From Moniliella sp. 'wahieum' (lineage: Eukaryota): 64,000 nt of DNA. The stretch covers positions 62,001-126,000 of the forward strand of contig RSEE01000003.1 in NCBI GenBank assembly GCA_003971905.1, read 5' to 3'. Shown here one piece after another: positions 1 through 62,046 of this stretch; the stretch's first letter is position 1; every line of letters starts with the position of its first letter. The position numbers and the translations under genes were made by a program. Below the pieces are notes generated by a model. It made no database searches and was not told the DNA's origin. It saw nothing but the letters and a program-made list of their open reading frames with translations.

Positions 1-1401
1 TGTCCTGGGCGTCGGAGCGCTTGCTCACTCAGTGAGTACTCAGGCTAAGACTCAGCGCCGCAAGGCATGTGACTCAGAGCGGGAGTTTAGGAGAAAACGA
101 GGATGGTGCATGTTACGTACCAGTCGTCTAGTTTGCCTGTTGCTGCTGCCACAAGTATAGAGGGGATGTCCCCAGAGGGGATTTGGGATTGTGCAAGATG
201 ATGACGATGTCGATGATGGTGGATTGTCGATTGCAGCAGACGCGCAAGGGCCCGAACGCCTTTCCCGCTGGAAGCGCGTCCGAGGGCCTGTGGTACCTGA
301 GCGCGGCCTGGCACTGGGCGCTTTGAGCGCCTTGAAGCTTGAAGCGTGAGCGCTGGAGCGCGGAGAGGCCGAGGCACTGCGGCGTGAGATTAGGCGAGCG
401 TTCGTCGTATCCTAAACAAGCGGCTCTTTAATTAGGAACGGCCACCTACAGAACACTGCCGCCGTGCGTGTGAAGAAAAGCGGCAGGCGCGGGGGAGCGG
501 GGCTAGTCACCAGTTCCAGCCACTAGTTACTCAACAAGCCTGAGCCTCAGGGCCACTCTCGTGTCGCCTCACGGCAACAAAGCAGCTGGCCCGACGCCTC
601 CCGACGCCCACTTGGCAACCGGGCACGGAGAACTCGTTTGCGCTGAGGCTACGGCACGGCCCCCTGTGCTCTGGCGTGCTGCAGCGGCCAATTAGCTTAA
701 TTAGGCCGCCATGCGGCCAGTGCCGATGCCCGCCCTCATCTGGGTGTCTCAAGCTTCTGCATCATGCATCACACATCATGGCGCTACACAGTGGCTCAGT
801 GCTCAGCGAGCCTACAGCTTAGCGCTGATCAATGATCGATGATCTGCTAGTCATCGATACTGGATGATGCCAAGGCTCAGCCAGCACGGCGCCTGCCTTT
901 GGACCTCCAGTCTCCAAAGCTAAAGAATGTGGCAAAAACTGTTTTGGTGCCACTGCGCTGCAACCCCTCTGACAAGAGCCCGAGGGCAGCCTTGGGCAGC
1001 CACCGTGCCGCCTCCAACCCCTCCTATCATCCACCCCCGCTGCGTCCATCCGTTGCCCTCCACCCTATCCGTCTGACACATCCGCCATATACCCCTCCCT
1101 CCGCCCGCGCCACACGTCTGGGTTCCGTTGTTCAACGTTCAACGTCACGTTCATGCATGTCATCCGCTTGTCCCCGCTTTTCTTGCGCTGGGGGCCGATG
1201 GACCCTTCCCCGTTTCTTCGTGTTTTTCTTGCTCTCCACGCTGCAGTCTGCTCCCAGCCCACCTTAACTTGTCGTTGATTCCTGCCACCGCCACAGCACT
1301 TTCGTAACCGCATCAGCTACTTTTGCCGACCTCTCCCTGCCCCTCTTGTCTCCATTTCCTGTTGACCAACCCCTGCCGCACTTGCTCCCACCCCTCCCAG
1401 C

Positions 1402-2870
1402 ATGGCCGTGGCAGTGGAGTCGGCTCGGCCATTCGCCTCGCCTGCGTCTCCAGGTGTGGCTGGACCAGCGCCTGCGCATCACTCAGCTCCCCCGTCCACA
1501 CTGAGACCCCAACCTCCCAACCAACGGCCGCCCCGGGGGAGAGGAGGTCCTCCTGTCGGCCCTACGTTGCCCGAAGGAGCAAGAAGACCAAGACGACCGC
1601 CTGGCGCTCAGCGCAAGCCGCGTCGCTCGAGCGCCGAGGTGCATGCCGAACTGATGAAAGCCCAAGCAGATACCGACTGGCTCGAGGACAACGTATGTAC
1701 TGTTTGCTCCAAGGTGGTCACTGGGCGCGACTTGTATGTTCCCCCACTTGTCGCAGCGCGGATAGCGGGACTGCGGTGGGGCCGCCGCGCGGGGAAAGTG
1801 TGTCCAATTGGAACGCTGCGGGTCGCCTTTCGCTTTCGTTTTCGCGCCGCGCCTCGCTTCCTCTCTTGGCCCCAGGCTTGGTCTCCCCGTGCACGAGGGC
1901 ACGAGGCGCGATCCGAGCCCACCCTCGGGGCACACCTTGACCGAGTCGGAATCAGAAGTGACACCCGACCCACCGTCGACCGGGGCCGGTGCGGGAGCGG
2001 TAGGGGCCCCAAGATCCGGCTCGGGTGAGTTTGCCTGCATCGCTGGTGCAATCCTGAACTTGCTTCTGCTCGACTTTCGCTGGGCAACCGGCAATGCGGT
2101 ACAACCGTCGTCCATCTAAGGCGCCCCTGCCTCCGCCCGTGCTCTTGGACGGCGCTCTGCTTCCCCCACCTTGGTTCCCCATCGCCAACGCACCGCCATT
2201 CATACGCCATGGGTATGGGCATGGGCATGCCTGCCATTCCCGTTCGCGGGGATGCTCCGTCGCACCAAAAGGGGGAAAGGGAGTCGACCGCACCACAGCT
2301 GCGCGCTCGTATGCCCCCCCATTGACTGCACCTTTTGCGGTGACTCTACGTCGCACGTCGTTGTCTCTGGATATGGGTCGGGGACGAAGAAGGCTGGCGT
2401 TTCGCACCCTGCGCCCCTTGCGCCCTTTACCGATTGGAATTTCTCCATTCCGGCCTCGTCGTGTCATGTGATGGGATCCAGTGGCGCGCTCCCGGGCGCA
2501 GAACACATATCCCTCCCCGCCGCGCCGGCTCTCGGCCTTCGCTCTCCCTCCCCCCCCTTTCTCCGCTTCTGTCGCCAACGAACCGGACGGGTTGTGAGCG
2601 ATGGGACGGATGGAGAGGGCGTGAAGCGGTACTATTCCGTTCCTCCTGGCACGCTTCTTGTCGGACCATCAACCGTGCTTCCCCTCCTCGTCAGGGGCCT
2701 CAGGCCTCACCAAAAAGCCCTCCACATTGGGCATTGCCTCGCCATTCTGGATCTCACACGCTTGGCTTGCATTCGCATCATTCTTCTGATCCTTGTGATC
2801 ACGTATATCCCAACATGTACACCGCACCGCCATTCTTTGGTACCATATCATCTGTGCTTGCTTGCTGTAA
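1402..2870 (+). CDS. Ecl1-family (four-Cys zinc-binding motif) low-complexity protein; frameshifted, 3' end approximate
   Basis: Joining ORF 1402..2028 (…DNVCTVCSKVVTGRDLY) to the shifted frame (CSPTCRSAD) gives C-x2-C…LYCS-x2-C-x3-D, the Ecl1-type motif. The ATG at 1402 follows a candidate 5'UTR intron (GTAACC 1304 … CAG 1400). Confidence 0.6.
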
Positions 2871-2943
2871 GAGACAGATTCAGCGCAGGCACTTCATGGC
2901 CGTCTTCAGTAGTACAGATCCACAGGCAACAAAGAGCCAGTCC

Positions 2944-2980
2944 CAGATCCAGATCCAGATTCAGATTCAGATTCAGATTC
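2944..2980. repeat. (CAGATY)n hexamer microsatellite
   Basis: cagatccagatccagattcagattcagattcagatt seen directly. Confidence 0.9.
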
Positions 2981-3318: not shown

Positions 3319-3357
3319 CTACAACTAACTGATCGCGCCTATAACTAACTGATCGCG
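3319..3357. repeat. 20-bp tandem duplication
   Basis: ctacaactaactgatcgcgc / ctataactaactgatcgcg. Confidence 0.85.
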
Positions 3358-11827: not shown

Positions 11828-14204
11828 TTACCGGAACGGCAATTTGATCAGGAAGAGCAGCATCTCCATGCACACATGGACCGAAGTCCAGAGACACGTC
11901 GGGACCAGTTCCGGGTACGCGCGCAGATCGCCCAGTCCAGGTTGGTCACGTCACGCCAAAGAAATGCTTGCACAGTGCGCGTGCGACAAAGGCCGAAGCC
12001 AACTCGGACGCCCAGATGGCGCTTGCCCAGCATCGTCTTGGAGTACCCGTATTCATCGCCAAACGCAAAGAACGGGTACAGGGTTTGGTTCGATCCAAAG
12101 TGCAGGATGGACACCCAGCCCAAAAAGGCAACCATTGTCGTGTTCTGCGCTAGGTTGCGCTGGTAAAATGCCAGTCCGACATTTTCCGCGTACTCTTCCC
12201 ATGACTTGGGCTGCGGATCAAAGAACGACGCCGCACGGTGGCCGGGACGGACATGGAGATCGGATACCAAATACAGATCCAGAACGACGAGAGCAGTTGA
12301 AGCAGAGCAAACTGTTGAAGGATTGGAGGCGGGCAAACAAGTTGCGGTAAAAGATAAAGTAAGTGAGGAAAAAGTAGTAGCGAAACACAAAGCTCAACGC
12401 TCGACTGCGCACGCGCTGCTTTAGCACCCAGCTACTGACCAGCGTCAACAGAGTCACCGTCCCTTGCCAGATCATCACATAGGCCGTGCCCTCAATCCCC
12501 GAGTGGGGCAAGGTGGAGAGAAAGACGGAAGCATAGGCTTGGCCCAGAACCAGGGCACCCAAGGCCATCCCGATCGCCATCATAAACCAGAGAAAGCGAG
12601 TGTAAGAGGCCGGAATGCGCGCGTTGTGTCGCTCGAGAAAGGTGCGCTGGAGATCGGTAACCATCATACTGTACCGTGCCCGTCCCGACCGGCGCAACCC
12701 GACGAAACAGACCAGGGCCGGCATGGCCATCGTAGCAAACGTCAGTCCCACCCACATGGTCTTGCGTTGCCATTGAACATCGTCCCCTTCCCAATCCCAA
12801 CCATCGTCCCCGCTTGGGTCCGAGGCGCCCCGTCGCCGGCGGTATAGATCCAACTCGTGCAATCCGTATCCGGCAGCGAGCGAGGCGAGCCAAAAAAAGA
12901 GAGTAAGAAATCTTGGCGCCCAGCGCTTTGGGCCACCAGTTGAGTCGGTATAGGGTAAAAGCTGGGTGATCCAGAGCAAACCGACAGCCGAGTAGAGGCC
13001 ATAGTAAAAGATGAGAAAAAACCAAAAGTTCGCATCAACCGACAGGGTCGTAGGCAGCGTCCAGGTCCATGGGAAGCGCCACATTTGATCTTCGGCCGCT
13101 GACATCCAGAGGTGAATGAATGTGAAGATCCGGATTCCCAGGGACGCAGGAACCGACGCAGGACCGACGAGGATCGGGGAGAGATACCGCTTGGGGTGGG
13201 GTGCACCACGGCGGAGGTGCGGGGCCGGCGCACCAAGGACCATTTGGATCAGTAGGGGTGGACTTGGGGAACGGGACGGCACACCAGACCCATACCTGAA
13301 TACGATGGGGATGGGATCAGCCGTCAGCGCGTCAGCTACATCCCCCCCCAATCCAATAGGGCTAGGCAGGGAAGAAGAAAGAACGTACAATACAGCTTGG
13401 AATCAGCACAAGGATGGACCATTGCTGGATCCATGAGTTGAGCCACCGCTCCACCGTGCTGGCAGGTGGGCGAAAAAGGTTGTACCACCACCATGTTGTT
13501 TCTGACTGATGCTCAGCTCCGAGTCAGGTCGCTGGGGGGGGTAGCGTGATGGCCACCAGTGGCAGCCATTGTGCCATAGGGCCGATGCACACCATTGGGC
13601 ACGTTGCGCAGCACTGCCCCGCCCACCCCTGTTGGAGCCAACATCTCCCCTTCGCCATCGAGCCAGGCACACTGTCGTCCGAAGCATGGAAGGCTAGGTA
13701 CCGTCGCGAAACTGGGCGGTGCCTTGAGTGGGATCCGGGTCGGACTCGGGGCCATTGCGCGCATCGGGCAGGAGACGGTGGGAGAGGAACCCTTTCCGCC
13801 GGGGCGGGGGAGGCGATCCGGGTATGGAGACGGGAAGGGGGAGGGGCTGGGGGAGAGTGGGAGAGAGTGGGGGGGGGTGGGCTGCTGGTGCGCCAACCAG
13901 CACGGGGGGCAGGATGGGACGCAGGCGGGGTGGAGGTGGAGGTGTGCCGCGGCGGCAGCACATGTGGGGCCGAGCGGGAGTTGCGGAGCGCAAGACCAGC
14001 GGGGGGCGTGTAGAGATCAGCGTCCAGCCCGCGGGCGGCAATGAGCGACTCGGACGTGGGCTCAGGGGGCACGGCGACGGCGGCGCGGAGGCGGTCGAGC
14101 GCGGCGGCCAGCACACCTGGGCGAGGGGGGGAGAGGGGGGGGGGGCGGGACGAGCGGAGGCGCGGAGAAGATCCGCGGGTGCGAGCAGCATCGGACGGGC
14201 CCAT
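11828..14204 (-). CDS. Uncharacterised fungal multi-pass membrane protein with Pro-rich N-terminus (start uncertain)
   Basis: Many hydrophobic segments (FWFFLIFYYGLYSAVGLLWITQL; YTRFLWFMMAIGMALGALVLGQAYA; YFFLTYFIFYRNLFARL); C-terminus …HVCMEMLLFLIKLPFR* with stop at 11828-11830. Confidence 0.7.
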
Positions 14205-15149: not shown

Positions 15150-17893
15150 TGTTCGGGACAATATCCTCGTCGGCGGCGGTAACTGGGCGAGGGGGGTCGA
15201 TATCGGGTCTCCGTGAGTAGGGTGGGTAGAGCTGCAAAAGGAACATAGCGCGAAACTTGAGCTTTTAGTTAAACACGCTGCGCAGATAAGTACCTGGTGC
15301 GGCCCAGCGAGGGCCCGCACAGAGAGAGCGCAAGTGTGACGCGGCAGGCCAGACGAGAGGAGAAAAGATGATGGGATGGTGGGAGCGTTGGCGATGGAGA
15401 TGGCAGTGACGAAGGCGAGGGCGATGGGACGATGGACGGATGGCTTACGTGAAGAGAAGGCGGGGTGGGTGAGCAGGGCGGGGGCAGCATTCGCTAGCAC
15501 GCATCACTAGTCCTAGTCACGAGTCAAGCGTTCAAAAGTTTTCCGAAGTATAGGGATGCTCCCGTCCAAAAACTTCGCACCCACTCCTGCCGCTGGCCGC
15601 TGGTCTCGCCTGAAAGACAGATATGAGATCTGAGAGAGCGACTGCCGACTGTGATTGCGAGCCGCTGGACAGCAAGCAGAGGCGCGTAGGCCGATACAAT
15701 CAGAGGGGAAAAGGGGCACAATGGAGGTAAATCATGAGGGGAAGAAAGTACGCCCGCTGCTCTGGCAGGAACGGCCTCGCTGGCGTTCGGAGGGATGGTG
15801 ACCGTGAGCTGACTGTGGGCCTGGGGATGATCGATGACCGAGGGGCGCCAGAACGATATCTCTAAGTTCCATATTCGAGCAGGCAAAGAAAATGTGCAAC
15901 CCTACTGCCCCCACCTGCACGTGACGGGTGGGTGGGGCTGGCTACGCCAATGATCGGGCATATGACAGAGTCGCGTCGACGCGTCCCTCCACTCCCTCAA
16001 AATGCCCCTCACCGGCCTCATTGCCGCACCAACGACCACATTCGCGCACAGTGTACCTTCAATCCACGCCCGAGAGAGGCACCGCCACTGCCGTTGCCCT
16101 GGCTACAAGGCTGCCACAAGGGGGGGAGACAAAGGGGGACAAAGGGGATCGGTGGGGTGGACGAGAGGTTAAACGTGAATTACGACGACCCTGTCACAGG
16201 CGGGCCTTGCCAGGGGACTCACCCAGGTTGGTGGGGTACAATCCCTTAGATAAAGGACGACTCACGGTGGTTTCCGGCTTGGGCTATTTGGAGGAGCGGC
16301 CTTTGGGCGTGCAGCCGATGCGGCCGCACGCTTGGCAAGGGTGCGTATGTCCCGGCTTGGGGCAGTAACGTGTCTGAAGCCTCCGGGGCTGAGCGACGGG
16401 TAGACGCAGTGGAGCGGACAGACACTTCCAGGGCTGAGGCATGGCAGTGGCTGTGAAAGGAACCCACGCGACATGCTGAGGTACGGAGAACCGACGCGGC
16501 TGATGGAAGGCTCGCGCGACTGGGCAGATGGAAAGATAGAGTGCGACTTGGGAGCACTCGCGATCCTATGGATGAGCTGCAAAGCAGCCTTCAGACAGGC
16601 GTGAAGGCAAAGAGGTGAGCCACAAGTCTTCAGGCAACATCTGAGTTGAAGGGAAGGAGACAGGAGAGAGAGAAGGGAGATGAAGCGAGCAGGGCGCGCG
16701 CGCCCTGCGAGCGGAACTCTTCCCCCCGGTTAAGTGAGCGTCACCGATCCACCGAGGGCCGTGCAAGGGAACCCCAGCACTACCCTCCAACAGAAGCAAG
16801 CGGAGGCTGCGAAGGCACTAAGAATGTCATCCGATAGCACTTCCTCGTATGGGTGTAGGACAGCAGGTGCTGGAGGCGAGCTGGCCGCCAACCATGCGTC
16901 GGACGCGGGGCATGTGGCGGGTGGCTCGCTGTACACAGGCGCCGTGCCGTGTCACAGCCGTGCGCGCTACGAGTAGGGTCCGTCCCTGGGGCCTGGCCCT
17001 CCAGATGCAGCTGGGGGGGTCGCGTGCACGTGACGCATATGCGTGCCACGCTGGCCTCCCGGCCTGTGCCGCGGCCTGTCGTGGCTGCGCAGGGCTGCAT
17101 GGTTCCACAGGGCTACCCTGCCGCACTGCCGCATGCTGCAGGCAGGGAATGATGTTTGATGCAGATGGCAGAAGGCGCGAGCGCTCGCAGCTCGCACTAG
17201 CACAGAGAGCAACCAGAGCGATGCCAAGACCCACGCCCAATCGGGCGCCCGCAGGGGGGCAGCCTAAGGCGGGTTGGCTTCCCGAGCATGCAGCGTCACG
17301 CGTCACGCGCCACGAGCCTCAGGCCCCACGCTTGAGCCGGCTTCAAGTTTCAGCGCTGGGGCGGCGGGAGGGCGTGTGTGCTGAGATAAGCATGTGGCTC
17401 TGCTGCGGCGGGCTGTGGGCTGTGGCAGTGCTGGTTGCACGGGCAGGCGCTGCGCATGCAGCATGCCAGCGGCTTCATGCGGCGAAGCAAAGGCGCCCGC
17501 TCGCCAGACACGACGCGTGACGCTGCGGTTGGCTCGCGCTGTCCGGCCCGGCTCTCGCATGCCGCCCTCGTGCCGCGTCACGCGTCACGCACTGTTTTTT
17601 TCGTCCGCTGGGCCAGGCGCGAGGCCACACGATGGCGGCCTGGCCCAGCGCATGCGGTGCGGGGGCGGCAGGGGGCTAGCACCCCAGTGGGCCTCCAGTT
17701 CGCATGCGTGTTCTGCCGCCAATCGACAGTGCCAGCCTCAAGCTTTCAAGCTTCACCGCCAGCTTCAGCGTCAGCCTCAGACCAGCACTTGCCACTCGGC
17801 GCGTGAGCCTCAACACCACCACCTTCTTCCTGTCTCCCACACCACCACCTCCTCCTCCTCCTGCTCCCCCCCCACCCCTCTCTCCACACAGCC

Positions 17894-19482: not shown

Positions 19483-20790
19483 CCTGCTCTCTGCAATCCC
19501 TCGAGCTCCACCCTCGTTGGCTGCCTCTCTTTTCGCTCATACCCTTCTCCCTTCCCCATAATGGACCATGGACGAACTTTTTGGACTCTTCTTTCCCGAT
19601 TATCGATTCCTATGCATGCTTCTCGTATCGGCCACGCCATGCACGTAGTAATAGTAGGTGACCGCGCGCTGGTTCGGTGGGAACAAAGCACTCGTGTCGT
19701 GGAGCGGTCTGAACGTTGCTACAGTCATACCCCTTTTAATGTTGCGGTGCAGAAGGGGCGATATCATGCGGGAAGACGCTCCAAAGTTGCTAGCATGACG
19801 TGTGAATCAGATGAAAGAGGCGTGGCCCGTTGGGGGCACGTATTTTCTCTGTGGCTATCACAAAAAGCTTCTTACCATATACACCGGTTAATGGACCGCT
19901 TGGACCAGGAACCTGGCGCGCATGATGCATGACGAGTCGACGGGCGACACAGAGGTGGAACATGCAACAGGAGATAACCAACCTGTTGATCTCGTCGAAC
20001 AACATTCACTACGAGAAAGATTCAATCGGGCGTACCTACCCTGTCACATATAGGTGCCGTAGAAGCTATCCCCAATCCACCGCGTTCCATAGGCTACGGG
20101 ATTCTTGGGCTTTCCAGGATTCCTATCAGTCACAAAACTGCATCTGAATCTTCCAGCAAGGCGAACCGGGTCGGGATGCAAGGGCGGGAAACGTGGTACC
20201 CACCAACGGGGACGAAACAGATGCAGAAGCCTTGGAGCAAGGAAGGCACTGACATGTGATAAAGGCCGAGACGCAGGGTGAAAACTTGGCCCGCAGTAAG
20301 TATAAGGGTAGTGCCAACCTCAGGAGGTTCTTTCATGGTTTCAACACTGGTCCACCCTCCACGCAGCAATCTCTCCAACTGAGCTCTCCCTCTCAGCAAT
20401 GTGGCTCCTCCTCTGGCCCTGTCCAAAGGCAAAAGCGGACCACCTCCCTGCCTCACCTTAGGTGCACGCCCCTTGCACGCGGACTCCTAGCTGTCTACTA
20501 TATGTACGCCCACTCAGCACATTAGCCGCACCGGCTTTGCCCAGCTCAGAGTCACACCCAGCGCAGTGGCTCCGGGTACGCTGCTCCGCCCGCTGAGCGG
20601 CGCAACACATAGCAAGACGACTGGAAATGGTTAATGGGAGGGGATGCAATCAGATGAAAGGGTACGGGTAGGGGTAGGGGCAGACAGAGGGGTGGGTAGG
20701 TCATCTGTGTCCCACCTTGCCCAGAGCAGACAAAGAAGGGAAAGGAGACGTCCGCGCGACAGACTGGGGATGCGTGCTGAGCAGTACACT

Positions 20791-21367: not shown

Positions 21368-22402
21368 GGGGAACGCTGGGGATGGTGGTGGGGGGCGTGC
21401 AACACGCCGCGCCCCAACCGAGTGACGAACAGGACAAGCGAGGCTTGGGCTAGAGGGTAGTGACTACCTAATGATGCATGATGCATGACAATGGCTGATG
21501 ATGTCACCAGCCCCCTCGCTATTGACACTGCCGATGTGGCCTGAGCCGGCTGGGCGCTGATGCAGCTTAGCCGCCACAGAACGCCGGTTGGGTCACGTGA
21601 GTACAGTCGCAGCGTCCTTCGCTCGTTCTTCACCCCGTGGGCTCGACCATACGGTGGAACGGAGCTGGGGTCGCTGGGACGCGATGGATCTGCCCTCTTC
21701 CATTGCTCATCAGCTGTTTCTGCCATGGATCCTCTGCTTTTTGCGGCCAAAGTCCGGCACAGTGGGTGCACCGACCGCGGCACGTCGGGCCACTTCTGCT
21801 TCTCGGTCCCACTAACAGCTCTCAAGGGGTTACTATTACTACTTCTCACGCCACAGCAAGAAAAAGGACGGGGAATGCATCATGCAAAGTAACACAAAGA
21901 TTAGGCAAGAACAATTCGCATGTCCTTCCTGGGGTTCAAGTTAACAAGGCATGAAACAGTCGAAAATAAGTTGGTCCAAGGGCGTATACATAGAGATTCA
22001 GAAGGAGAACGCTTACCACCAGGGGACCCCAGTGGTCTACGACCTGGGCCAAGCAACTAGGGTGTGCAACGTGCATCCCCAATCACAAGAACTGCATAAT
22101 GTCAACTGACACTGACACGGAGCCAGTAACGCTAAAGACCACTCCATACATTGCAGAGCCAAAACGCTCGTATCCAACCAAGTCAGACATGATAATCAAT
22201 GGGCATCAACGCAGCCAGCGGCACCTGTACCTACAGTCGTGTACATGAGAGTATTATTGCCTCTCCCCCCTAGTTTGGGCTTTTCGAGGTTAGGCGGCAG
22301 GCGCGAATGCGGAAACAAAGGAAACAGTGTACAAGTCAAAAGGGGCCAATTAATTTGCCGTCTTGCGCCTCAACCGTGGCTAGGGCTTTTGGCACCCGAG
22401 GC

Positions 22403-23679: not shown

Positions 23680-23807
23680 TGGAGGATGCGGTGGCGAGCG
23701 CGAAAAAAAGTGCCACGAGCATCACATCGTAGCAGCACGGCACCGCAGGACCGCCCCGGCCGGGCCGCAGCTCGGAGCCAGTGTAACCCGAAAACCGATC
23801 AGATCGA

Positions 23808-23897
23808 TCAAGCTTCAAGCTTCAAGCTTCAAGTTTCATTTTCAAACATCACGCGTTGGGCGTCACCTGTCACCCGTCACGCGCGCGTCACGCGTCA
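23808..23897. repeat. 7-bp periodic TCA-N4 array upstream of SCS7
   Basis: TCA AGCT TCA AGCT TCA AGCT TCA AGTT TCA … TCA CCTG TCA CCCG TCA CGCG … TCA CGCG TCA. Confidence 0.85.
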
Positions 23898-26317: not shown

Positions 26318-26987
26318 GCAACGGCGCCTCCCCCCAGCTGTTGCCGCTTGTAGCGTGCTGTCGTGCCATGGATCCTAGCAAAATTCGATGACCGATGATC
26401 AGCGATGCATGGTGGAGAGCCAAGTAGCATGTAAGGGTGGAACATGTAACGCTACGATACTTGAATGCCCTGAAGCTTGAAGCTTTATGGAGGCAGACAC
26501 TGGTGGCAGTCGCATGGCTATGCACAACAGAGTAGGCGGTCTGTTTGGCCAACGAGCCTCTGGGTCAGTCCGGTCAGTACAGTCAGTACTGGGCCCCGCA
26601 AACACCGACAGTTTGCCCAGCATGGCCAAGCATATATATATGCCACCATTCATCGATGAATCATCCCGGCAGGATACGCTCTCGAGTGTAACACGTGAGG
26701 AAATGTATATACGCACACCCTCCTTCTGCGCTCCCAGTCCAAATACTAGTACCTTCTTTCTTCCGTAGGCGGGACGCAATGACAGTGCAATGCCACGCCA
26801 AACATACGAACCTCGCCACCCCTGCGACTTTCTCCCATGTGTAACTATAGGCCCGTCCATATCCCTCATTGCAATCAGTGGCCATACAGTAGTGAAATTC
26901 GATTCATAGATAATACACAGCTTTTCCCCTTGCGAGAAACTGCTTAGCAGTGAGCGTTGGAAAAGGCTTCGAGAGTAGTAGGGCTTC

Positions 26988-31269: not shown

Positions 31270-31800
31270 TTCGAGGGGAATTAGGGCGGGTTCCCACGTC
31301 CAGCCTCGGCCGCTCAGCCGGAGCGTTTCAACTTTTTTTGACATAAAAACTAGTCCAAACCCGCGGACCCATCCTCGGACCAGATTGGTAAGTGAGTTTA
31401 GTCAGGTCCTCTGCCAATCAATCCTACTCCATCGCGGTTGCTCGTGTGAGGATGCTGTAGTGGAAGCAACACTTGTCAGGTCACCGGTCATGCATCATGG
31501 CCGAGTAGGGTCTGGGTGACTGGGTGGTTAACCCCATTTGAAGCTTGGCACTGGCTGAGGGCGCTGAGGCTCAGCTGAGTAACCTCGGGCCTCACGCAGC
31601 TGGCTGAAGCTTTGACATCGGAGACCCGAGATGGAAGGGCTGGCGGCTGAGCCTCAGCGCTGAGCCGCTGAAGTGGATACTGGAAAGTGAACGTTCAAGT
31701 ATTGGAAGTCCAGCGGGACTGCCACTGCTCTGTCCGCAGCCAGGGGGGGGGCGCAGGAAGGCACGTACAGCCCAAGCGCCCCAGGAGCACCAGCGCTTCC

Positions 31801-38774: not shown

Positions 38775-40441
38775 TTATGGCGTAAGCAAGTCTTGCCCTA
38801 ACCCTCCCATACGCATGGGCGGAAGCAAAGTTGTGGTCTTCGTTTCCAATTCCCCGAGCTCAAACGGGGGCGTAGTGGGCGTGGCGGGGGGGGTAGCGCG
38901 GGGGGTTGCCACAGCGATCCTTTCCATAGGCAATGCGGGTGTGTTGGTAATCGGGGTGATGCTTCATCTCGGAACTGGCACGGATTGCGTTGTGGAGGCT
39001 GCAAAAGTTGACGAACGCCTGGAGAAACAAGAAGGGGAAATTAGTATCAAAGGTGAGCGACTAGGGCTTAACTTGAAGCTTGAAGTCGCACAAGAGGCGA
39101 TCAACGTACACAGTTTTTTCTGGCAATCGGTTCACCTGCTCGATCTCGCCAAAGACGGAAAAGTCGGTGTGCAACTTTTCTTCGGTAATGGGGTGAATGG
39201 GGTGGTCCAGGTTGCCAACATACACGTTGCGCGACCCCCCAGCTTGCACGGCCATGGCCAAAACAGGTGCTAAGGGTCCCGAAGGCCGTCCCCAGCCGAC
39301 CTTGATACGACGCGAATGGATGGTGAGGGATCCTGGGCGCCCGTCCACATCCGAGACCTGGGTCGCAGAGGAGAAAAAAGCATAAGCCGCATTGGGGTCG
39401 ATAAAGGTGACAAAGGCAATGTGCTTGTCGGCAAAGTAGCGAATGGACTGAAGAATGCCGCCGCGAATATGATTGCATAGCTCCTCGGTTGAGGTGTCGG
39501 GGTGGATGTCACCCAGGTAAATGGTGCGGTTGCCGAGTTGGCTCGGCTCGGGCAAATTGAGATGTAAATTGGATCCATCTTCTTGGTGCTGTTGGGTCAA
39601 GGCGGCGCCAACTTGGGCAGCAGCGACCATGGCGGAACGGTGATTGTGCGCTTGGTTTTCCTGCTGTGCACGGGGTACATGGGCACACCGATCGCGTCCA
39701 AAATTGATTCGCTGGTGGCTCCAGGCCGGGTCGGAGGACAACGTCGCAATGGCAGTCATGGCGGTGGAGATGGAAAGAAAGTGGACAAAGGCGATGCGAC
39801 GGTCATGCACTAGCTTGACCTGGTCAATTGGCCCCAGATTGGTCAAACGGTCACGCAACTCGGCTTCGGCGGCGGGACGGGCAACAAAGTCTGGGTCCAG
39901 GTTGCCAATGTAGACGTTGCGTGTAGCGGCACAATTGGCCACCGCCGCGGCGATGGCGGGTGGGAGAGGGGCGGGGCGGCCCCAGCCAACGCGGAGCGGG
40001 TTTCCATGGAGCGCAAAGGGTCGGGCGCAGCTAGCGGCGGCATGAAAGGCGGCGGCGGTGAGTGGATTTAGGAAGCTGATAAAGGCACATTGTTTCGCTG
40101 GAATCACGCGCACATTCTCGATGGGGCCATGGCGGATGAGATCGAGAAGCTCGTCGACCGAGGCGCGGCGGGAAGGTTGCCGAGATAGACGGTGCGCGAT
40201 GCAATGGGAGGAACGGCAGGTGGGAGAGGAGAGACTCCAGGAACGGGGACAGAGTAGAGGACTGGGGCAGGAACAACCAGGCCGGGGAGTATAGACCGTA
40301 GGGGCTGGGGGGAGCGTGGAGGGGCGTGGAAGGGGGGCTAAAGTAGAGGGCGTGGGGAAGAGGGAGAGGCGAGGCGAGTAGGGCGGCGGTGGGAGCAGGA
40401 TCGAGATCGGAATCGGGGGCAGTGGGGGAAGCGGCGGCCAT
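38775..40441 (-). CDS. MRN1: Four-RRM RNA-binding protein (S. cerevisiae Mrn1 / S. pombe Nrd1 family)
   Basis: [36 protein letters not shown]; linkers [23 protein letters not shown]; intron 39019..39109. Confidence 0.88.
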
Positions 40442-43400
40442 GTCGACGACGATGGAGGGGGTGTGGCAAGGAGAGAGGGGGCAGGGGGCAGGGGAGGGGC
40501 AATGCGTGAAGCGAGGAACGGATGTGGAATGTGCTGATCCTGACGGTGTGGCCGAGGATGACGGGTGAGGCCAGGGTGATGACGATGAGGCCTGAGGCTG
40601 AGGCCAGAGGCCAGTGGTGATGCAGATGGACGAGTATTGGTGATGCGGCGTCGGTTCTCAGATGAGAATCTGAACTCTGGCAGATCTCTCAGCACTGAAC
40701 GTACTGAACGTTGAATGTTCAGTTGAACTCGGTACGCAGCACAGTGGGCGAACCGAAGGAAGGCAGAGAGATGTGTTGAATGAGTTGGATGGGAGACATG
40801 TAGCTTGCAGCTTCAGATCCACCTTGGCTGGGCTGGCTGATCTTCTTAGGATGCGTTGGCCTTGGCAAACAGTGAGTCTAGGATGGACTGAGTATGAGTG
40901 TAGCGACTATCGTGACTTATTGGTGACGTGAGCTTCACTCGTGACTACTAAGGACTAGTGACAGCCACCAGTCACTGGGACTGGTGCCACCTGCCTGGTA
41001 CTCAGAACGAGCACCGAGAAGCTGAGTTTGGATAGGAAAGAGTAGGACAGACGAGTCATAGGCTAGAGGAGCACCGCGTCGGACCGAGTACTCTCGTAAC
41101 CGCGTCACCGATCACCGTCATTCGCTCTCGCTCTCAGCAGCTGATGGATGCGATGCAAGCTGCAGGGGGCATGCCCGCCGCAGGATCGGCATGGCGGGCT
41201 GAGGCCTGAGGCGTGAGGATGGATGGGTGGTCATCGATCGGAGGTGGCATTCCCATACTGCCGCCCCGCCTGTGCCGATCGCCTTCGGCAGGCACAGACG
41301 CTATGCGCTATGCAGGGTTCGCTGACGCGCATACCTGAGACTGCGCAAGGGGGCAGTGTGCCACCCAACCGCACCGACACAGGCCCTGGGGCGGACAAGC
41401 ACCGCACTGTCGATCCGATCCAACCGCACTGGTGGGTTGTGGGAGGTTGTGAGTGTATAGATCCATCGCCCGTCTACGTGTCCAGCACCATCAGATCACC
41501 AATCTCTCGCCATGGCCACCTGTCACATGTCACACGCTCAGCCTCCGCGGTATCGATGATGGAAAAGCTCCTTGGACGTTGCCTGCTTTATACCATTTGG
41601 CTGCCTCCCCTTCGTTCCAGGCAGCCCCACAGCAGAGCAACGGGAGTTCGAGTCTCCTCATGATGAGATCTGAGAGGAGTTGGCCGCGTTGACGCTTTCC
41701 CCACCCCCACTGACAGCTCTTCCGTTTTCGAGTCCACACGCGCCTTGGCTGGCACCGACAGCAGAGCCGTCTGTCTCCCTAAACTTACAGCCAGCCATCA
41801 TCATGATGAGATCCTTCCAACAGCTGAGGGAGAAGCCACTGCACCGCTCGCTTGCCTTCATTTTTCGTCTATCCCCGTCCGTGTGTTGTCAGCCACATGG
41901 ATGAAGACAACGATGAGACTCTCCAACACCTTCTCAGTCTCAATACGAGATTCGTTATAGTTTTCACCGCTGTATACAACCATCAGCCCGTCAAATTTGC
42001 GAGAAGCCAAATGTAATGGCAGTGCTGCAACCGCTATAGTACCTCTTCTGTTGGCCTCAACTTCCGGAAGATAATATGTTTCTGGTCAATCGCATATGCC
42101 TGCACATATGACTGCAGAGAGGAAAGCACGTATAGCGTCGTCCACGTTGCACGACGATGACTATTAGCTTCAACGGTCGCGGAGCACTTCCGGTCTCACT
42201 AGCCCAGACCCGGGCGGGGGTTCCGAAGACTGCTGGTGCGCGCGTATCCACCTAAGCCAGCGACTAGTAATAACATTCTCCTCGGTACCCTCATCCTGCC
42301 TCCTACCACTAATGCCTATCTCTCGCCCGCGATCGATCACCTACGCTACTGTCTGCGCTGTTCTGTGTCATCGCGGTCTCTACTATAGCCGGGTGGATCA
42401 GGACGACGCTACACGATCGCTTTCCTTCTTTCAGATTGTAAAGCTTCTACCATCCCCGTTCCTCCTCTCTATCCCCTTTCGCCTTTTTAACATAATGTAC
42501 AACCAATTTAGCGCAGGCGGAAGTCCGACTCTTCGCACTGAAGGGGGGGTATCCGTCTCCCTTTTTCCCGCTCAGTGCCAATGGGGCACGATACTTCTTA
42601 TTAAGCCAGATCACAAAGCCTTGTTGTCATTCGACAGCAACAGTCCTGCTTGCGACACACACACCTGGTTACGACCCACATTGAGGTGTGGAAGTGCACA
42701 GGGCTATACTCCAATAGCCGTCGCGTGCACTGGACCTTCTGTTTCCCCCTTTTGTTATATGCTCTCTCCTTTTCTCTGTGTGACCCGCGGACACTCATGT
42801 GAATGTCCCCTTTCTGTGGGGAATATATACCACACCTCTGTTCCCTTGATGAATGTACTATCCTGATCCCTGCTGATGCAGCTGAACGAAGTGAGGATAA
42901 TGAAGGATGAGGTTCTGATGAGGTGTGCAAAAAGGAGTTCTTTAATATGACATGGACACTTTTGAGGTTATACCGCCGAACAATAAGGGGGCGTATCCTC
43001 AAGTGTATCTCTGCTGATAAGAGAGGATGAGCCATGCACTATGACTCATCTCAATCATACTCTCCTAGGGTGACATGATAGAAACATCTCCCTCTCCGTC
43101 AACCCCTTTTCCCCCTCTCCATCTCCTGAAAGAGGAAAAGGAAAAGCAACGCCACGCCCTCGGGTTGCCATATGTTAACAGAAGAGTATCGACTCTGCAT
43201 GTCCGTCGGTCTGCTCATTTCAAGATAAAAGCTTGGCCTTGGCGAGCCTACTAGCTCTGCAGCCGACAGAGTTTCCCAGTCGACACTTCGGCGTATATGC
43301 AAAAGGGGTACGGTGTGCGTATTAGGGAAGACGATGAGAGTCACAAACCTCAACAGAATGGATAACCGGCACGAGGAGGCCACCGGGCCTACGGCGTGGT

Positions 43401-49432: not shown

Positions 49433-52400
49433 GATGGCGATGGCAGACACGAGGGGTGGGGCTGAAGAGGGGTATCCGGGAGCGGTGGGCCGGCAGTGGT
49501 GGTGGTGGTGGTGGGTGGGAGAAGACAAGGAGAGTGGGCACACAGAGGGAGTGGTGTGGGGGTTATGGTGAGCTCGTCTCGTCTGGGCTCGGGTCTTTCA
49601 AACGAGATGACCGCTGATTGCTGCTCATCATGCGCTCATCATTAATCGTGGGCGTTGCTTGCCTGGCGGTCTGACCGGTGACCTGTCTGGCGTCGGGCGT
49701 CGGGCAGGGCCGGGTACGCGGGGGTGCGATCTGCGAGGGGAGATGATCGATGGGTGGATGGGTGCCGCAGCGTAGGCGCAGCGTGCGGCCGCAAGCCCCC
49801 GCAAGCCACCCCGCCCGCCGTACAGGGCGAGTGTGAGCCAGTTCATAGTTAATCGTGAGGTAGTCATCATTAATCACTCAAGCAGGCCCTGAGGCCCTGA
49901 CGCGTGACGACGCGACCATCAACGTATCCACGGATCATTATATCAACGCCCCCCAGCCACATCATGCATCAACGGATCATATATCAACGTGCGCTCCATA
50001 TTCACTGCGCCGGCGGGGCAGAACTCGGCGGCACCGCTTCTCTCGGCGCCCGAGGCCCGAGGGCGCACGTTTTTCTATTAACCTCATTTCCCCGCCGATC
50101 TTCCACCTTTCTTTTCCCCGCCCCTGCTGTGTCGCCATCCATCCACATCTGCCGCGCCACATTCATCTCGATAGTCAGGTCAATCAGTGAATCAGTGAAT
50201 CAGTGAACCAGGCTCTTTCATACCGGGAGGATTGTTGCAGATGAACTGTCAAGTCAGAGAGCAGCTGCAAAAGAGACCCCCTTGGCAGCCGGCACTGCCA
50301 GCCGCCCATCCAACACTGGTACCCTACTCTCCCCCGGTCGGCCTGCCTGGAAACCGTACTATGCGCATCTCACATGTCGCATCCTTCTCACATCCAACTC
50401 ATCCACCTCGTCAAGCTTCAAGCTTCAAGCCTCCCTATACATAGCCACTTTCACGCATCCACGCCGTATACATACTTGCATTGCCTCAGCCCTACATAGC
50501 CAAGTAGTCAGATCTCTGATGCCCATGCATCGAGCATCCGCAGCCAATCGATCAGCGGGATCAGCACACACATATCAGTACTCAGTAACTCGGCAACTCG
50601 GGCCTCGGCCTCAGGACCAGTCCTCAGGCACTCAGACGTGCTCGGTCCCAGGCTGAGAGGCTGAGTGGCTGGCAGCTGAACAGGTGTTGAGCCTGAGCGA
50701 GCGCACAGCACTTCGACGTCTAACACATTCAGCCTGTCTCGTCAGTCAGGCGCGCCTCAGGCCGGTCATCAAAAGGTCATCCCGGTCATCAATCATCGCG
50801 GCTGCGTCACGCGTCATTCATCATGAACATCATTAACGTTTCACGTCCTCGTTGATCATTCGCTTTCACGCATATGCAAGCCCACCTCGTCGAGCTTATG
50901 CGCCGTTGCTTAAAGCTTAAAGCTTGATGGAAGCAACGCGCATCACGTGCACCCTGCATCATGCATCATGCTGCATGCGTCAGGCACTGGCGGACGTGCA
51001 CGTGCACCTGCAGGCAGCCTGGATGCTGTGGACGCAGCATGCCGGATGGGAAGGCACTGGGTCCTCCATGCCCCATCTGTGGAGGACGAACGGACCAGCC
51101 TTCTTCCAGCGTCGATGAGACTGTGAGAGAGTGCGCTGCATACACCGCCCATCATCAACAGCACACACACACGCGGGCTACCGAGGGAGCTAGGTTCTCC
51201 ACCAGTAGATAGCCACCCGCATGCACCTCATGCACTGTCTCTTCCTTGGCATGGCCTGGGCTGGTGTCATGCATCATGTCATACAGCAGTCTGCACCATG
51301 CGTGGTTCTGCCTCAGGCCACTTGTCTCCTGTTGCTCTCTATCCATACGACTCTTCCTTCCTGGCCTCCCCCTATCGGACTCCTCTTTTGGCAAGTTTGC
51401 ATTTTGCCATCTGCCATCGGCGTAGCTGGCAGCCACACCACAAGCAGAACCCGACATGGGAGGGCAGAGCCTATGGGGAAAGCGTGTTGCCTGTTGCCTG
51501 TTGCCCTTGAAGGGCACAGGAGGCTGGAACTTGGGAGAAATGGCCGGGATGGATGGCGTCTTGGCGCTGCGCGTGCCACTGGGCCGCGTGGTATAGAAAA
51601 CAGCGGGGTCCTGGCCCTAGACTAAAAGGCTGGGCCAACACCATCTCCTTCTCTCTTCGGTCTCTCGGACTCTCGGACTCTCGTCTCTCGGACTCTCGGT
51701 CTCTAGTTGTTCTTTTACAGGGGACAGGGTAGGAGCTCATCTAGTCTCCTCTGAGATCTGAGATCTGAACACATTGAGCTACGCGCTACACCCGGCTACA
51801 CTTCGTCCGTCTGCCTCCCTGGGCCCTGGCCCCACCTACCCTACGGCGGTAGGACTCCCCTCCCTGCCGGAGCCGACACCGTAAGGGGCTACATGTGTAA
51901 CGTGTCGTGTCGCCCTCGGAGGCTACGAAGCTTGGTGCAGGATCGGCTCTTTGACCCTGGATCTCCCAGACCTTCAACTTGAAGCTTCAAGCTTGAGGCT
52001 TAAGAAGCTTGAGGCTAATAAATGTAGACAGCGTGAGAAAGGGAGGCGATGATGGATGATGCACTGATGGTTCCATTCCACGTGAGCGCGTGAGAGGTGC
52101 CTGAGGCCCGAGCTCAGGCCTGAGGCTCAGGACTGACGACAGGGGCAGAACCACATGGGAGGGTTGGAGGTCGGACCATATACATCACACAGAGCAGATG
52201 CGGGGCATGTGTGCGCGTTGTTAGCCATCTCTAGAGTCTTCTGTAGGAAGGGTCGAGGAAACTAGTTACTCCTTACGCGTTACGCATTACGGGGCAATGC
52301 GGATACTTCCCTGGACATGGGACACGAGGCCCTCATTTCGGGGCCTCTCATCGACCATCGAAGCACCCCCCCGTCTCGTCTCCACGTCGGACTAGTGTTG

Positions 52401-52968
52401 AAAGAGAATCCCTAGTTAGCCGGCAACTTATCCGTTTGCCGATATACTCCCCGCCCAGACCCCTTTGGCCCAACGGTATAGAGTATGATAGATGATGCTT
52501 CCAGGCATGCCCATTGCGCCCAGTCTTTTGGCCGAATCCTGTGTCTACCGCAACCCAACTGCGAGCTCGGCGCGCAATGCCTTCGAAAGCCAATCGGCTG
52601 CGCTTGATCCTTTTGGCCACCATCAATCTATTCTCAGATCTCGTTTCTCTCCTCGTAACATTAAAAGGGCGCAGGATCTCTCTCATGCATGCATCATGGC
52701 GCTAACAGTATAGTGCTGCGGCTGATTCCAGACGGCGGCGAGACAGTCGATGCTGTACTGCAGTGCGACTGCTGAAAGGAATGCAGCCTGCGGCGGGGCA
52801 GCTACGGATGAAAACGGCATCTCCCCCTGACTAGATCGTCCGGCTAGGAGCACAAGTTGGTTGTTGCGCTGAGAGCAGTGAAGCAGATATGGGATGATAG
52901 CATGTGCCTCCTAGAGCAAGGCATGTGCACCCGTAGGGGGAGACAGGACTTTTAGGTGGTACAGGGCC

Positions 52969-56922: not shown

Positions 56923-56960
<38 letters not shown>

Positions 56961-59900: not shown

Positions 59901-61732
59901 ACGGATCAGATGGAAGGCATTGCCAAACCGACTCTTCTTACGTTCCTTTGTCGTCAGAGTCTTCACTGGTTTGAGATTCATGTTGTAATCGAGATGAAGA
60001 TAGTGCAGGTTCTTGCGGTGAATCAAGAGATTGAGCATGTTGAACGACTGTCGCACCACCTGCAGACCAGCCTCGACCCAATCCAGTGTCGTGATCTGGA
60101 AAAATTTGGTTTCCTTAAGCGAACGGAGAAGGTATTTCTTCGTCCCAGCCTTCGGATTGCGCGTCTTGAGCTTGTTGAGAACATGCTTCTTGAGCAACTT
60201 CTGGTACGATACGCGAACTTTGACCGGTTGATTAGGGGGGCAGCGCTCTTTAGCATACCAGTCCTTGATCAGAGGCACGTCAACAGCGCGCACGGTACGA
60301 CCGCTGCGTTTGTTGAAGGGTGCAGGAGCCCACCAAAGGGCAATCGCATCTGCAGTCAAGTCGTTGGTGAGCTCCGTGTCCTCCATGAAGGGCTCAATTC
60401 CCTCGGGGAGGGAAAACGCCTCTTCGTCCTCCAGATCGTCATCTCCGTCCTTGCCGTCAAAACCTGATCCTCGTGGGAGACAACCTCGGTGCCATCGGCA
60501 TAGTGATCGTCGAACTGAGCTGCGTTGAACGTATGGGCAGCGATGGGATTGATGATGGGGTCAAAGTAGAAAGCGGGCAGGTCCGGGCTGTCGGCATGGA
60601 TGCAGACCGACTTAGGTTCATGATAAATGTCCTCAAACACACCACGTGGACGGGAGTTGTACAGATGAGGGAAGGCGACCTTGTACTCGGTGCGGATTTG
60701 GGTGCGAATAATGACCTTGTTGACGTCATTGAATTCATCCCAGTCGGCATCAAAATCGTCCATGTCGGTGTGTAAAGGCTCGAACTTGGGTCCGCCGGGG
60801 ATGGCAACGTTTAGCGCCTTAGCCGTGAAGAAAGATTTGTCATCAAAGAGGTACCGATAGTTCTGGTCCCCAACGACAATGTCGTCAATAAGCGAGCCTC
60901 CCAGACGATACAAGTTGGCCATCTGGGCAAGGGAGAGGGAGAAGGTCTTATACGAAGGCCCATTGACGTGTACGGCATCCTCGACCAGCGGCTTCGAGTC
61001 GTAAAACCAGTCGATCACGGCGGCGTCCTCATCTTCGTCCAGCTCTTCCTGGATTGCTTCGAGCGGCTCGACATCCAGGATGTTATCCCCGTAATCCATA
61101 GGGGGCTCTTCATCATCAAATGGAGGGAAACGCATGCGCTTGAAGTGGCGACGATCGCGTTTCTCCCGGCGCATGGCGAGCCACATTGTGGCCCACTGAG
61201 CCTGAAACACAGGCTCAATCACACGCGGGATCTCATTGACGAATGTGATCGCGCCCGAAATGTGGTAGAGAACAGGAACTTCTCGTACTTGCTGTGTGGC
61301 AATAAAGAGATGGTCAACCGTCATAAAGCAGGGGGCAAAGGGGAGGAAACACGTACCTCCCAAGGCATGGGAATGTTCTCCAACAGCTTCATCATGGCAT
61401 GAGGCACATACTTGAGCGCACCAAGGTAGACGCGCTTGTCAGTCTTATACTTCTTGTCGCTCATGTCACCATGGTCTTTGATGATCTTGCGGACGTGTTC
61501 GGGCGGCATCTCTTGTTTGCCGGGGTCGACAAAGGCGGTCTTGCCCTTGCGGTCGCCGAAGCGGGAGAGACTGCTGCTGCTTCCACTTGCGCGACTTGGA
61601 CGCAAGAGTCGCCACGTCGAGGTGCGGAAGCTCACCGGGGGCAGGTGGCGAGGGGGCAAAACCCCGGAGGGGGGCAGGGAAGCCAGGGGGTGGGCCCGAG
61701 AAGCCGGGCGGGGGGCCCGCGGGTCCAGCCAT
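54405..61732 (-). CDS. PRP8: Pre-mRNA splicing factor Prp8 (U5 snRNP), no intein
   Basis: [19 protein letters not shown]…, [34 protein letters not shown]-terminal Jab1/MPN domain ([10 protein letters not shown]); introns 61292..61356, 57688..57747, 55388..55447. Confidence 0.99.
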
Positions 61733-62007
61733 GGTGCCAGTTGTGAGAAGGGCCGAAGGGGGAAGGCACAGATGCAAACGCAGACGCCGACGCAACCACG
61801 GACGCACTCGCAGACGGTGGGCAGAACGCAGGAGGCGATGGCCAGATTCTTGCTGGTCGCCGCCAGGCGTTGCTGCTTGTTTGGATGCCTGCGGGCTGTA
61901 CGCGGCGGGAGGCGAGACGCGGAATTAGGTAATGCATCCCAACTTTGGGGCGGAATTGGAGGGCACTGGCGAGGAGGGCAAGACTGCACTGAAAATGAAA
62001 TGCAGGA

Positions 62008-62046
62008 TCACCGGTTCACCGGTCACCGGTCATCGACCATCGATCA
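62008..62046. repeat. 7-bp periodic TCA-N4 array in the PRP8/YRB1 divergent promoter
   Basis: TCA CCGG T TCA CCGG TCA CCGG TCA TCGA CCA TCGA TCA. Confidence 0.85.

Follow-up and report, generated by a model that had tools for sequence, protein, structure and literature searches.

Flank-templated 7-bp duplications at T-S-A sites in non-coding DNA of a Moniliella contig: possible excision footprints of a DNA transposon

What process would set the triplet TCA every 7 base pairs (bp) along a stretch of DNA and separate its copies by 4-bp spacers that are palindromic, with the palindrome changing from locus to locus? Arrays of this kind recur through 64 kilobases (kb) of the genome of the fungus Moniliella sp. 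'wahieum' (contig RSEE01000003.1, positions 62,001 to 126,000; hereafter the window, with coordinates counted from its first base). A preliminary description took the arrays for a promoter grammar with a freely variable spacer. The pattern is real and far beyond chance. The spacer, in contrast to that description, is copied from neighbouring bases, and we consider that the arrays may well be mutational scars, most likely left where a cut-and-paste DNA transposon that makes 7-bp target duplications was excised, a reading in which our confidence is about even.

The signal was measured against dinucleotide shuffles, made either across the whole window (60 or 100 shuffles) or inside 500-bp blocks (100 shuffles). 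In what follows S stands for C or G, TSA-pal4-TSA denotes two T-S-A triplets around a palindromic 4-bp spacer, and counts take either strand. Pairs of TCA on the same strand lie 7 bp apart 83 times, compared with 32 in 60 shuffles (z ~9), and the distance of 14 is likewise elevated. Palindromic spacers occur 46 times in TCA-N4-TCA versus 1.8 times in 100 shuffles. Shuffling inside blocks gives 33.2 pairs and 2.1 palindromic spacers, with maxima of 45 and 7, versus the 83 and 46 observed. Thus, both the 7-bp period and the palindromic spacers exceed composition-matched backgrounds of either kind, as had been proposed. When all 32 strand-collapsed triplets are compared, none of the other 31 behaves like TCA; the runner-up, GCA (10 versus 3.4), is a rotation of the same TCA arrays. 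Perfect period-7 tandem duplications of at least two copies number 35, compared with 3.5 in shuffles, and the unit is an odd palindrome of the form nnT-N-Ann in 18 of them against a background of 10%. This enrichment is absent at every other period from 4 to 11. A full scan of the window finds 46 perfect TSA-pal4-TSA pairs in 36 loci. Of the 25 sites listed in the preliminary description, 23 are perfect pairs of TCA or TGA around the palindrome given for them, and the remaining two have a mismatch in the second triplet (TGA-GCGC-TGG at 347 and TCA-TCGA-CCA at 62030). Its figure of ten spacers among the 16 possible palindromic 4-mers was an undercount, because GGCC, CATG and TATA are also used; with 13 in use, only AATT, ATAT and CTAG are absent.

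To place a palindromic spacer between two TCA triplets amounts to repeating a 7-bp unit that is an odd palindrome about C, N3N4-T-C-A-N1N2. T occupies position 3 and A position 5 in every one of the 18 palindromic duplications, and 17 have C or G at the centre. In the wider class abcS-c'b'a'-abcS the third base is T in 67 of 74 matches and the centre is C or G in 64, and the seven matches without T are no more than chance would supply, its expected total being about 10. The outermost base, x, is C in 37 of 56 matches. The recurrent product is a 12-mer, xy-TSA-y'x'-xy-TSA, in which a 5-base direct repeat is interrupted by a 2-base filler whose sequence is that of the following bases, reverse-complemented. 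Repeats of nnTSA with a filler of 2 nucleotides (nt) occur 72 times versus 4.2 expected, and 53 of these, versus 0.3 expected, have as filler the reverse-complemented form of the two bases that come next. With fillers of 0 and 5 nt there is no enrichment in the window (3 and 1 occurrences). The conserved bases are T-S-A alone, with a bias to C at position -3. The T-S-A core is itself self-complementary except at its centre. The spacer is thus not free, as it had been thought to be: the palindromic 4-mer is templated by the two bases that flank the core.

The 12-mer, and not the full heptamer repeat, is the primary product. Read in TCA orientation, 28 of 40 runs have a periodic match that extends fewer than 4 bases outside the 10-mer, so that these loci are shorter than two units. 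The match into the flanks peaks at exactly 2 bases on one side, with (2,0) found nine times and (0,2) six times. Where a 14-mer departs from a perfect palindromic duplication by two mismatches, both lie in the outer two positions of one side in 18 of 56 cases, versus about 1.2 if mismatches were uniform. Single-copy nnTSAnn palindromes number 189 against 134 expected, an excess roughly equal to the contribution of the arrays themselves. Direct forms (46) are accompanied by nine inverted TCA..TGA forms, versus about 2 expected. Two loci are hetero-chains in which different palindromes stand side by side, TGA-GCGC-TGA-TTAA-TGA at 29004..29020 (-) and TCA-CCGG-TCA-TGCA-TCA at 31481..31497 (+). 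Both can be parsed as a single core copied once to the left and once to the right, with every copy mirroring its own flank.

The length of the duplication and the form of its junctions are informative. Perfect TSA-centred heptamer duplications amount to 26 strand-counts versus 0.2 expected and occupy 13 loci, of which only that at 52048 is non-palindromic; the 12-mer type accounts for 27 strand-counts at non-palindromic sites. At seven further loci an intact 7-bp repeat is split by 1, 2 or 6 inverted bases. In five of these the direct repeat is exactly 7 bp: CGTCAGC-g-CGTCAGC (13322..13336, +; one inverted base, class (0,1)), the +9 variants GGTCAGT-cc-GGTCAGT (26563..26578, +; class (0,2)), GCTGAGG-gc-GCTGAGG (31554..31569, +) and GGTCATC-cc-GGTCATC (50775..50790, +), and the non-palindromic CCTGAGC-ctcagg-CCTGAGC, with six inverted bases, at 52112 (-). 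The other two are of the same kind with an ambiguous repeat length: ACTGAAC-gt-ACTGAAC (40694..40714, -), a +9 type that also reads as a 9-bp tandem repeat and overlaps TGA-ACGT-TGA, and GCTGAGC-ctcagc-GCTGAGC (31646..31665, +), a 7-bp repeat with six inverted bases. Among five independent TSA-centred loci with a 9-bp period, four have the inverted 2-nt filler, for which chance is about 1 in 8 each, and in 9-bp repeats without TSA the inverted filler occurs at the chance rate.

When the trimming of the left copy, d, is set against the inverted length, p, the TSA sites fall along the diagonal d = p = 0 to 3 with counts of 26, 27, 53 and 53 where at most 0.3 is expected, and scattered products with p = 1-7 lie beside it. 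Junction variants have 1, 3, 4, 5, 6 or 7 inverted bases with trimming of 0-2 nt. Non-TSA sites are modestly raised in the same cells (46 versus 9.4 at d = p = 2, for example), which rotations of the same arrays, together with a general excess of short tandem repeats, account for in part. Inverted copies of at least 5 nt occur four times versus 0.07 expected, and two instances of the +11 product, which has two consecutive palindromes, are seen versus 0.05 expected. In each of the 53 primary products the palindrome at the joint, y'x'|xy, is even.

Where do these loci lie? Open reading frames (ORFs) with Pfam support hold 27% of all TSA sites, yet none of the 33 loci scored for position, where 9 were expected (binomial P = 2.8e-5). 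This bears out the view that nearly all arrays are non-coding. The 33 loci in the 46.6 kb outside such ORFs correspond to about 0.7 per kb. Many lie close to where genes probably start, among them loci upstream of the SCS7-like, RAD6-like, zinc-knuckle, RRM and PRP8 ORFs. Promoters are not their only setting, because one at 26471 lies between convergent gene 3' ends and another, at 39072, is found at the 3' end of the RRM-protein ORF, and the idea of a promoter grammar is left unsupported. Gene models here are Pfam matches to stop-to-stop ORFs and are too rough for a firm count of loci at 5' and 3' ends. The domain scan covered 154 distinct ORFs of at least 120 amino acids, out of 184 listed, and a relaxed Pfam scan of 28 neighbouring ORFs added nothing further.

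The preliminary description had offered two readings, a structural or regulatory promoter code and the footprint of break and fold-back repair. The repair-type reading is favoured because the spacer is templated by its flank, the 12-mer is the primary product, and inverted copies of 1-7 nt stand beside an intact 7-bp repeat; the promoter code is without support. Its argument that neither a simple microsatellite nor a base-reading factor accounts for the rule is upheld by the flank-templated spacers, the loci of sub-unit length and the junction variants. From the sequence rule, the products and the statistics of the window we infer an element, hairpins and a joining pathway, as follows. Integration at a site xy-TSA-zw (C being favoured at x), through cuts staggered by 7 bp about a central 5'-T-(C/G)-A-3', would create a 7-bp target-site duplication (TSD). 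Excision would leave both flanks as covalently closed, even hairpins, and a host nuclease would open each of them, usually 2 nt from the tip. The opened ends would carry 4-nt self-complementary overhangs, zw-w'z' on the left and y'x'-xy on the right. End joining that retained one overhang and removed the other would yield xy-TSA-y'x'xy-TSA-zw, a net gain of 7 bp, which is the 12-mer or its mirror image. At a symmetric target (zw = y'x') the overhangs would be cohesive and a perfect heptamer duplication would result. Opening of one hairpin at its tip would give the +9 product and retention of both overhangs the +11 product, whereas opening farther from the tip would give the longer inverted copies of 5-7 bases; other distances could also give +8. 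Each scar would carry two T-S-A cores, such that further rounds could lengthen arrays and build hetero-chains. Because a gain of 7 bp shifts the reading frame, scars would survive only in non-coding DNA.

Two features expected of excision footprints are seen in the window. The direct repeat has a fixed length, 7 bp centred on T-S-A, in the five exact split loci and the 13 perfect duplications, and the junctions contain inverted bases templated by the flank (P nucleotides) with variable length and trimming (53 versus 0.3 expected). P-nucleotide footprints are a known kind. Hairpins on flanking DNA are reported for hAT, Transib, RAG and the MULE Muta1, the last with a hairpin of 43+43 nt and hence even (PMC5499845). 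Footprints of such hairpin transposons (hAT, MULE, Transib) and V(D)J coding joints share with the window a retained direct repeat, variable P nucleotides, trimming of one end and one or two predominant products (PMC5873905, PMC5499845). The scars in the window differ in being T-S-A-centred with 7 bp and in being so dense and so often hit again that they form arrays and chains. Ac/Ds footprints in plants and yeasts are similar in their palindromic insertions and small joint deletions, explained by flank hairpins that host nucleases open; in Candida and budding yeast the footprints show small deletions with P-nucleotide palindromes, one or two predominant products, and palindromes centred on a base complementary to the one next to the element (PMC5873905). 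In contrast to Ac/Ds, where the TSD is 8 bp, the repeat here is 7 bp. The Ac/Ds geometry would turn TCA into TGA in one copy, whereas here the central C or G is kept (46 direct versus 9 inverted) and the centre of the palindrome lies between bases (y'x'|xy).

The even hairpin of MULE and Transib elements is matched by the even joint palindrome in 53 of 53 primary products, but their TSD length is not matched by the 7 bp found here. MULE elements make TSDs of 8-10 bp and Transib elements TSDs of 5 bp. Dyad-symmetric targets are familiar among DDE transposases and integrases, including Tn10 (NGCTNAGCN), hAT (nTnnnnAn) and PIF (CWCTTAGWG). The sites in the window resemble these in having dyad symmetry centred on the staggered cut, and PIF also has a T-N-A centre. 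They are unlike them in length and bases, and their outer symmetry is largely produced by repair rather than by the choice of the enzyme. Kyakuja elements have the termini CA..TG. In Basidiomycota, families with 7-bp TSDs include hAT7 in rusts and Kyakuja in Laccaria, and hAT7 belongs to a hairpin-forming superfamily (PMC12730594); their TSD length is that of the repeats in the window. We searched the literature for a genome-wide pattern of a 7-bp T-S-A target, an even-hairpin signature and dense, self-propagating heptamer arrays, and found no description.

Several related geometries were considered and rejected. A 7-bp TSD in a fixed palindromic phase without processing is contradicted by array boundaries that show no fixed phase, and a 3-bp TSD with 2+2 bases of transposon termini (Tc1-like) by a filler that correlates with the flank. 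A 5-bp TSD with two P nucleotides (Transib-like) does not fit the +9 and 6-inverted-base products, which retain the 7-bp repeat. An odd hairpin of the Ac type would flip the central base, and a staggered nuclease with fill-in would leave non-palindromic perfect duplications, which are almost absent.

Several observations weigh against excision by a transposon. Apart from the arrays, dispersed repeats are absent from the 64 kb, as are transposons and, among the 154 ORFs scanned, transposase domains. When terminal inverted repeats bordered by 7-bp direct repeats were sought, six matches emerged, none convincing: five are not TSA-centred, and in the sixth (17294/17589) it is the arrays that supply the supposed inverted repeats. 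A density of about 0.7 loci per kb is very high for scars in a region with no copy of the element. The dominance of products in which one overhang is kept and one removed, and the bias to C on the side of the retained overhang, have only ad hoc explanations. In about 6 of 29 non-palindromic loci, as read by eye, G follows the second copy. We know of no documented superfamily that combines even hairpins, 7-bp TSDs and a T-S-A target. Every statistic derives from one 64-kb window. Lastly, a metagenome contig (1-9023, G+C 58.7%), the single locus from a metagenome scan, encodes an SCS7-like protein with 52% identity, and the T-S-A signature is absent from it: TCA-N4-TCA occurs three times versus 4.6 expected, never with a palindromic spacer, and there is only one perfect 7-bp duplication. 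Coming from one 9-kb contig that is too diverged for its promoters to be aligned, this absence shows lineage specificity and nothing more.

Could a similar pattern arise without a mobile element? A host nuclease acting at accessible T-S-A, such as a domesticated transposase or another dimeric enzyme, might both duplicate 7 bp and cap the ends as hairpins. All of the pattern evidence for transposon excision would fit equally, and a window without an element and with a high density of scars would be accounted for. Counter to this, fixed-length duplication normally needs strand transfer of inserted DNA, and to our knowledge no nuclease both duplicates 7 bp and caps both ends. A plain 7-nt stagger with fill-in predicts non-palindromic perfect duplications, which are found at only 1 of 13 loci (52048) versus 27 strand-counts of non-palindromic 12-mers. 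We regard a host nuclease as unlikely. Slightly less probable is the other main rival, template switching during replication or repair, in which a nascent strand would stall at T-S-A, copy at least two bases of the opposite strand and return upstream with no transposase cut. Insertions that are wholly templated locally, with direct and inverted parts, would suit such a process, as would a core that is self-complementary save at its centre. However, the +9 and 6-inverted-base products (26563, 31554, 50775, 52112) would call for jumps without microhomology, the fixed length of 7 and the fixed centre of the direct part are not predicted, and folding back on T-S-A needs a loop of 1 nt.

Selection offers a different kind of explanation, in which a factor, or a DNA or RNA structure, would require T-S-A every 7 bp with self-complementary spacers. 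The many loci near likely gene starts point in this direction, as does the persistence of TCA while spacers change in the decayed run at 23834-23883. Yet an array read by a transcription factor would have protein-read bases and spacers independent of their flanks, whereas the spacers here are flank-templated and palindromy may be limited to one side of a site. The notion of hairpins or cruciforms, raised in the preliminary description, fails for two-unit arrays: with 6-bp palindromes 1 nt apart the loop would be 1 nt, and only arrays of at least three palindromes could pair. Nor do single-copy sites exceed expectation beyond roughly what the arrays contribute. Loci also occur at gene 3' ends (26471, 39072), junction variants resemble repair products, and the signature is absent from one related contig; we judge a selected cis-element very unlikely. 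Heptamer microsatellites grown by replication slippage, with palindromic units favoured for their structure, would be in keeping with an excess over shuffles of short tandem duplications with periods 6-12, with the 17 non-palindromic 7-bp duplications, and with multi-unit arrays such as that at 23808, which could grow in this way. But such microsatellites would consist of at least two complete identical units free of any constraint on symmetry, and this is not what the loci look like. Slippage cannot create the first copy, the 12-mers shorter than two units (28 of 40 runs), the hetero-chains or the 7-bp repeats split by inverted bases, mismatches are not uniform, and palindromy is restricted to period 7 with a T-S-A core. 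The sub-unit loci, the flank-templated filler and the hetero-chains exclude both an origin by slippage and a spacer imported from elsewhere, for example from transposon termini. As a sole cause slippage is already contradicted, and we consider it highly improbable overall. An assembly or sequencing artefact is barely credible: the 36 loci use 13 spacers, some copies are older and decayed, and some products are chained. Nor would errors spare Pfam-supported coding DNA, in which no locus lies, and we know of no error mode that inserts flank-templated 7-mers.

If excision of a transposon is the correct explanation, the window holds a dense and legible fossil record of such events, about 0.7 per kb outside Pfam-supported ORFs, from which the target (T-S-A with a 7-bp stagger), the geometry of the hairpin (even) and the opening distance preferred by the host (2 nt) could be read from sequence alone. 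It would also provide a route by which heptamer microsatellites and short palindromes arise and multiply without slippage, as every scar recreates two targets, and it would be a warning that what looks like a periodic motif grammar in fungal promoters can be a set of repair scars instead of a regulatory code. We should also consider, as an unlikely speculation, that a still-active hairpin-forming transposase, either from an undescribed T-S-A-targeting 7-bp family or one that the host has domesticated, strikes accessible non-coding DNA so often that new short repeats there stem mainly from it, and that it seeds self-propagating arrays that serve as fast-evolving regulatory material.

The remaining loci illustrate these types. 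Heptamer duplications occur at 333..342 (-; CTTGAAG x2.1 over 331-345, TSA-pal4-TSA with spacer AGCT), 1132..1141 (+; TCA-ACGT-TCA, in a full duplication GTTCAAC x2.3 over 1130-1145), 17296..17305 and 17578..17587 (both + and TCA-CGCG-TCA; CGTCACG x2.4 over 17293-17309 and x2.4 over 17574-17590), 39074..39083 (-; TGA-AGCT-TGA, CTTGAAG x2.0 over 39072-39085, at the 3' end of the RRM-protein ORF), 41523..41532 (+; TCA-CATG-TCA, TGTCACA x2.0) and 50959..50968 (+; TCA-TGCA-TCA, CATCATG x2.4). Longer ones lie at 21472..21488 (-), with three TGA triplets and TGCA spacers (ATGATGC x2.6), at 50411..50427 (+; TCAAGCT x2.9) and at 51752..51768 (-; TGAGATC x2.7). The duplication CTTAAAG x2.6 at 50908..50925 (+) is the sole perfect odd-palindromic case with an A/T centre. 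A 15-nt perfect inverted repeat joins 17290-17304 to 17512-17526, 207 nt apart; it contains the CGTCACG-type motif with the flank GCAGCG, and no target duplication was found around it.

The 12-mer type is represented on the minus strand by TGA-TCGA-TGA at 833..842 and 15828..15837, TGA-GATC-TGA at 15624..15633 and 41664..41673, TGA-TGCA-TGA at 19923..19932 (the last TGA is the stop of the ORF at 19483-19929), TGA-TTAA-TGA at 25290..25299 and TGA-CCGG-TGA at 49672..49681, and on the plus strand by TCA-TGCA-TCA at 36016..36025 and 51267..51276, TCA-GTAC-TCA at 50575..50584 and TCA-CGCG-TCA at 50807..50816. Other perfect pairs are TCA-TGCA-TCA at 762..771 (+), with a periodic flank on the left side only, TCA-GGCC-TCA at 2700..2709 (+), which was absent from the preliminary description, TGA-AGCT-TGA at 26471..26480 (-), which the zinc-knuckle (+) and MFS (-) genes flank with their 3' ends, and TGA-GGCC-TGA at 41200..41209 (-). 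TGA-CATG-TGA at 20250..20259 (-) has no periodic flank on either side and may be one of about two chance cases. TCA-TTAA-TCA (49867) and TGA-CGCG-TGA (49898) share the interval 49867..49907, and TCA-TGCA-TCA and TCA-TATA-TCA, separated by 5 bp, that at 49962..49986 (+). The segments 757-780, 50802-50825 and 50954-50977 share a longer frame, CTGC-(A/G)TCA-..-TCA-..-CATG, with 79-83% identity to the first, which is either a common context of favoured sites or chance.

More complex products are found at several positions. Variants with inverted bases include ACTCAG-tgagt-ACTCAGG at 27..44 (+; five bases, class (1,5)), which lies outside the range of the preliminary description, CTTGA-aag-CTTGAGG at 17736..17755 (three bases on the minus strand, class (2,3)), which adjoins TCA-AGCT-TCA at 17746, and GATGA-ttcatc-GATGAAT at 26648..26665 (-; six bases, class (2,6)). 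The locus at 51972..52016 (+) combines direct and inverted CTTSAAG units, including CTTCAA-cttgaag-CTTCAAG with seven inverted bases, and CGTGAG-cg-CGTGAGA at 52081 shares the interval 52081..52131 with the split repeat at 52112. TCA-TGCA-TGCA-TCA at 52683..52696 (+) is a +11 product. The composite locus upstream of the SCS7-like gene (23797..23900, +) contains GATCA-gatc-GATCAAG with four inverted bases, TCAAGCT x3.7 (23808), the decayed run at 23834-23883 that retains TCA every 7 bp, TCA-CGCG-CGCG-TCA (a +11 product) at 23877 and TCA-CGCG-TCA at 23888. Decay is also seen in a CCTCAGG-type array at 24008..24050 (+) and at 40586..40614 (-), where decayed TGAGGCC units come after TGA-GGCC-TGA. 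The array TCACCGG x2.4 at 62006..62032 (+), which lies close upstream of the PRP8 ORF, has a 3-inverted-base variant at its left edge and runs on into decayed TCGA units to about 62060.

The window has a G+C content of 57.7% and an intron-rich fungal gene set, as judged from Pfam matches on stop-to-stop ORFs. Genes identified in this way encode PRP8, seryl-tRNA synthetase, an SCS7-like fatty-acid 2-hydroxylase with cytochrome b5, a RAD6-like ubiquitin-conjugating enzyme, a zinc-knuckle protein, an MFS protein, an arylsulfotransferase, an RRM protein, a mitochondrial carrier and others. There is one tRNA-Ala(AGC) gene at 38312-38383 (-). Two environmental sequencing runs contain 7-8% of sampled words and, on 32501-52500, cover only conserved exons and the tRNA, with no array among the covered parts; positions 38322-38376 of the latter are the only non-protein part of that interval covered, at high summed depth.

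Other short repeats are also common. Perfect tandem duplications exceed dinucleotide shuffles at period 6 (48 versus 13.8), period 8 (10 versus 0.74) and period 9 (6 versus 0.3). Because short duplications exceed shuffles at periods 6-12 and 17 of the 7-bp cases are non-palindromic, a second, ordinary source of duplications must act beside the T-S-A process. The 3.3 kb at 49600-52900, without a Pfam-supported gene, are crowded with short tandem repeats of many periods and hold about a third of all T-S-A scars; the repeats there include the 8-mers AATCAGTG x3.8 at 50182 and TCTCTCGG x6.6 at 51652, and TGTTGCC x3 at 51485. A run of 17 G occupies 48881-48897. A 27-bp tandem repeat of about 5.5 copies with 82% matches (4966-5133) has a unit that is a multiple of 3, lies inside long open frames and probably encodes a repetitive protein segment.

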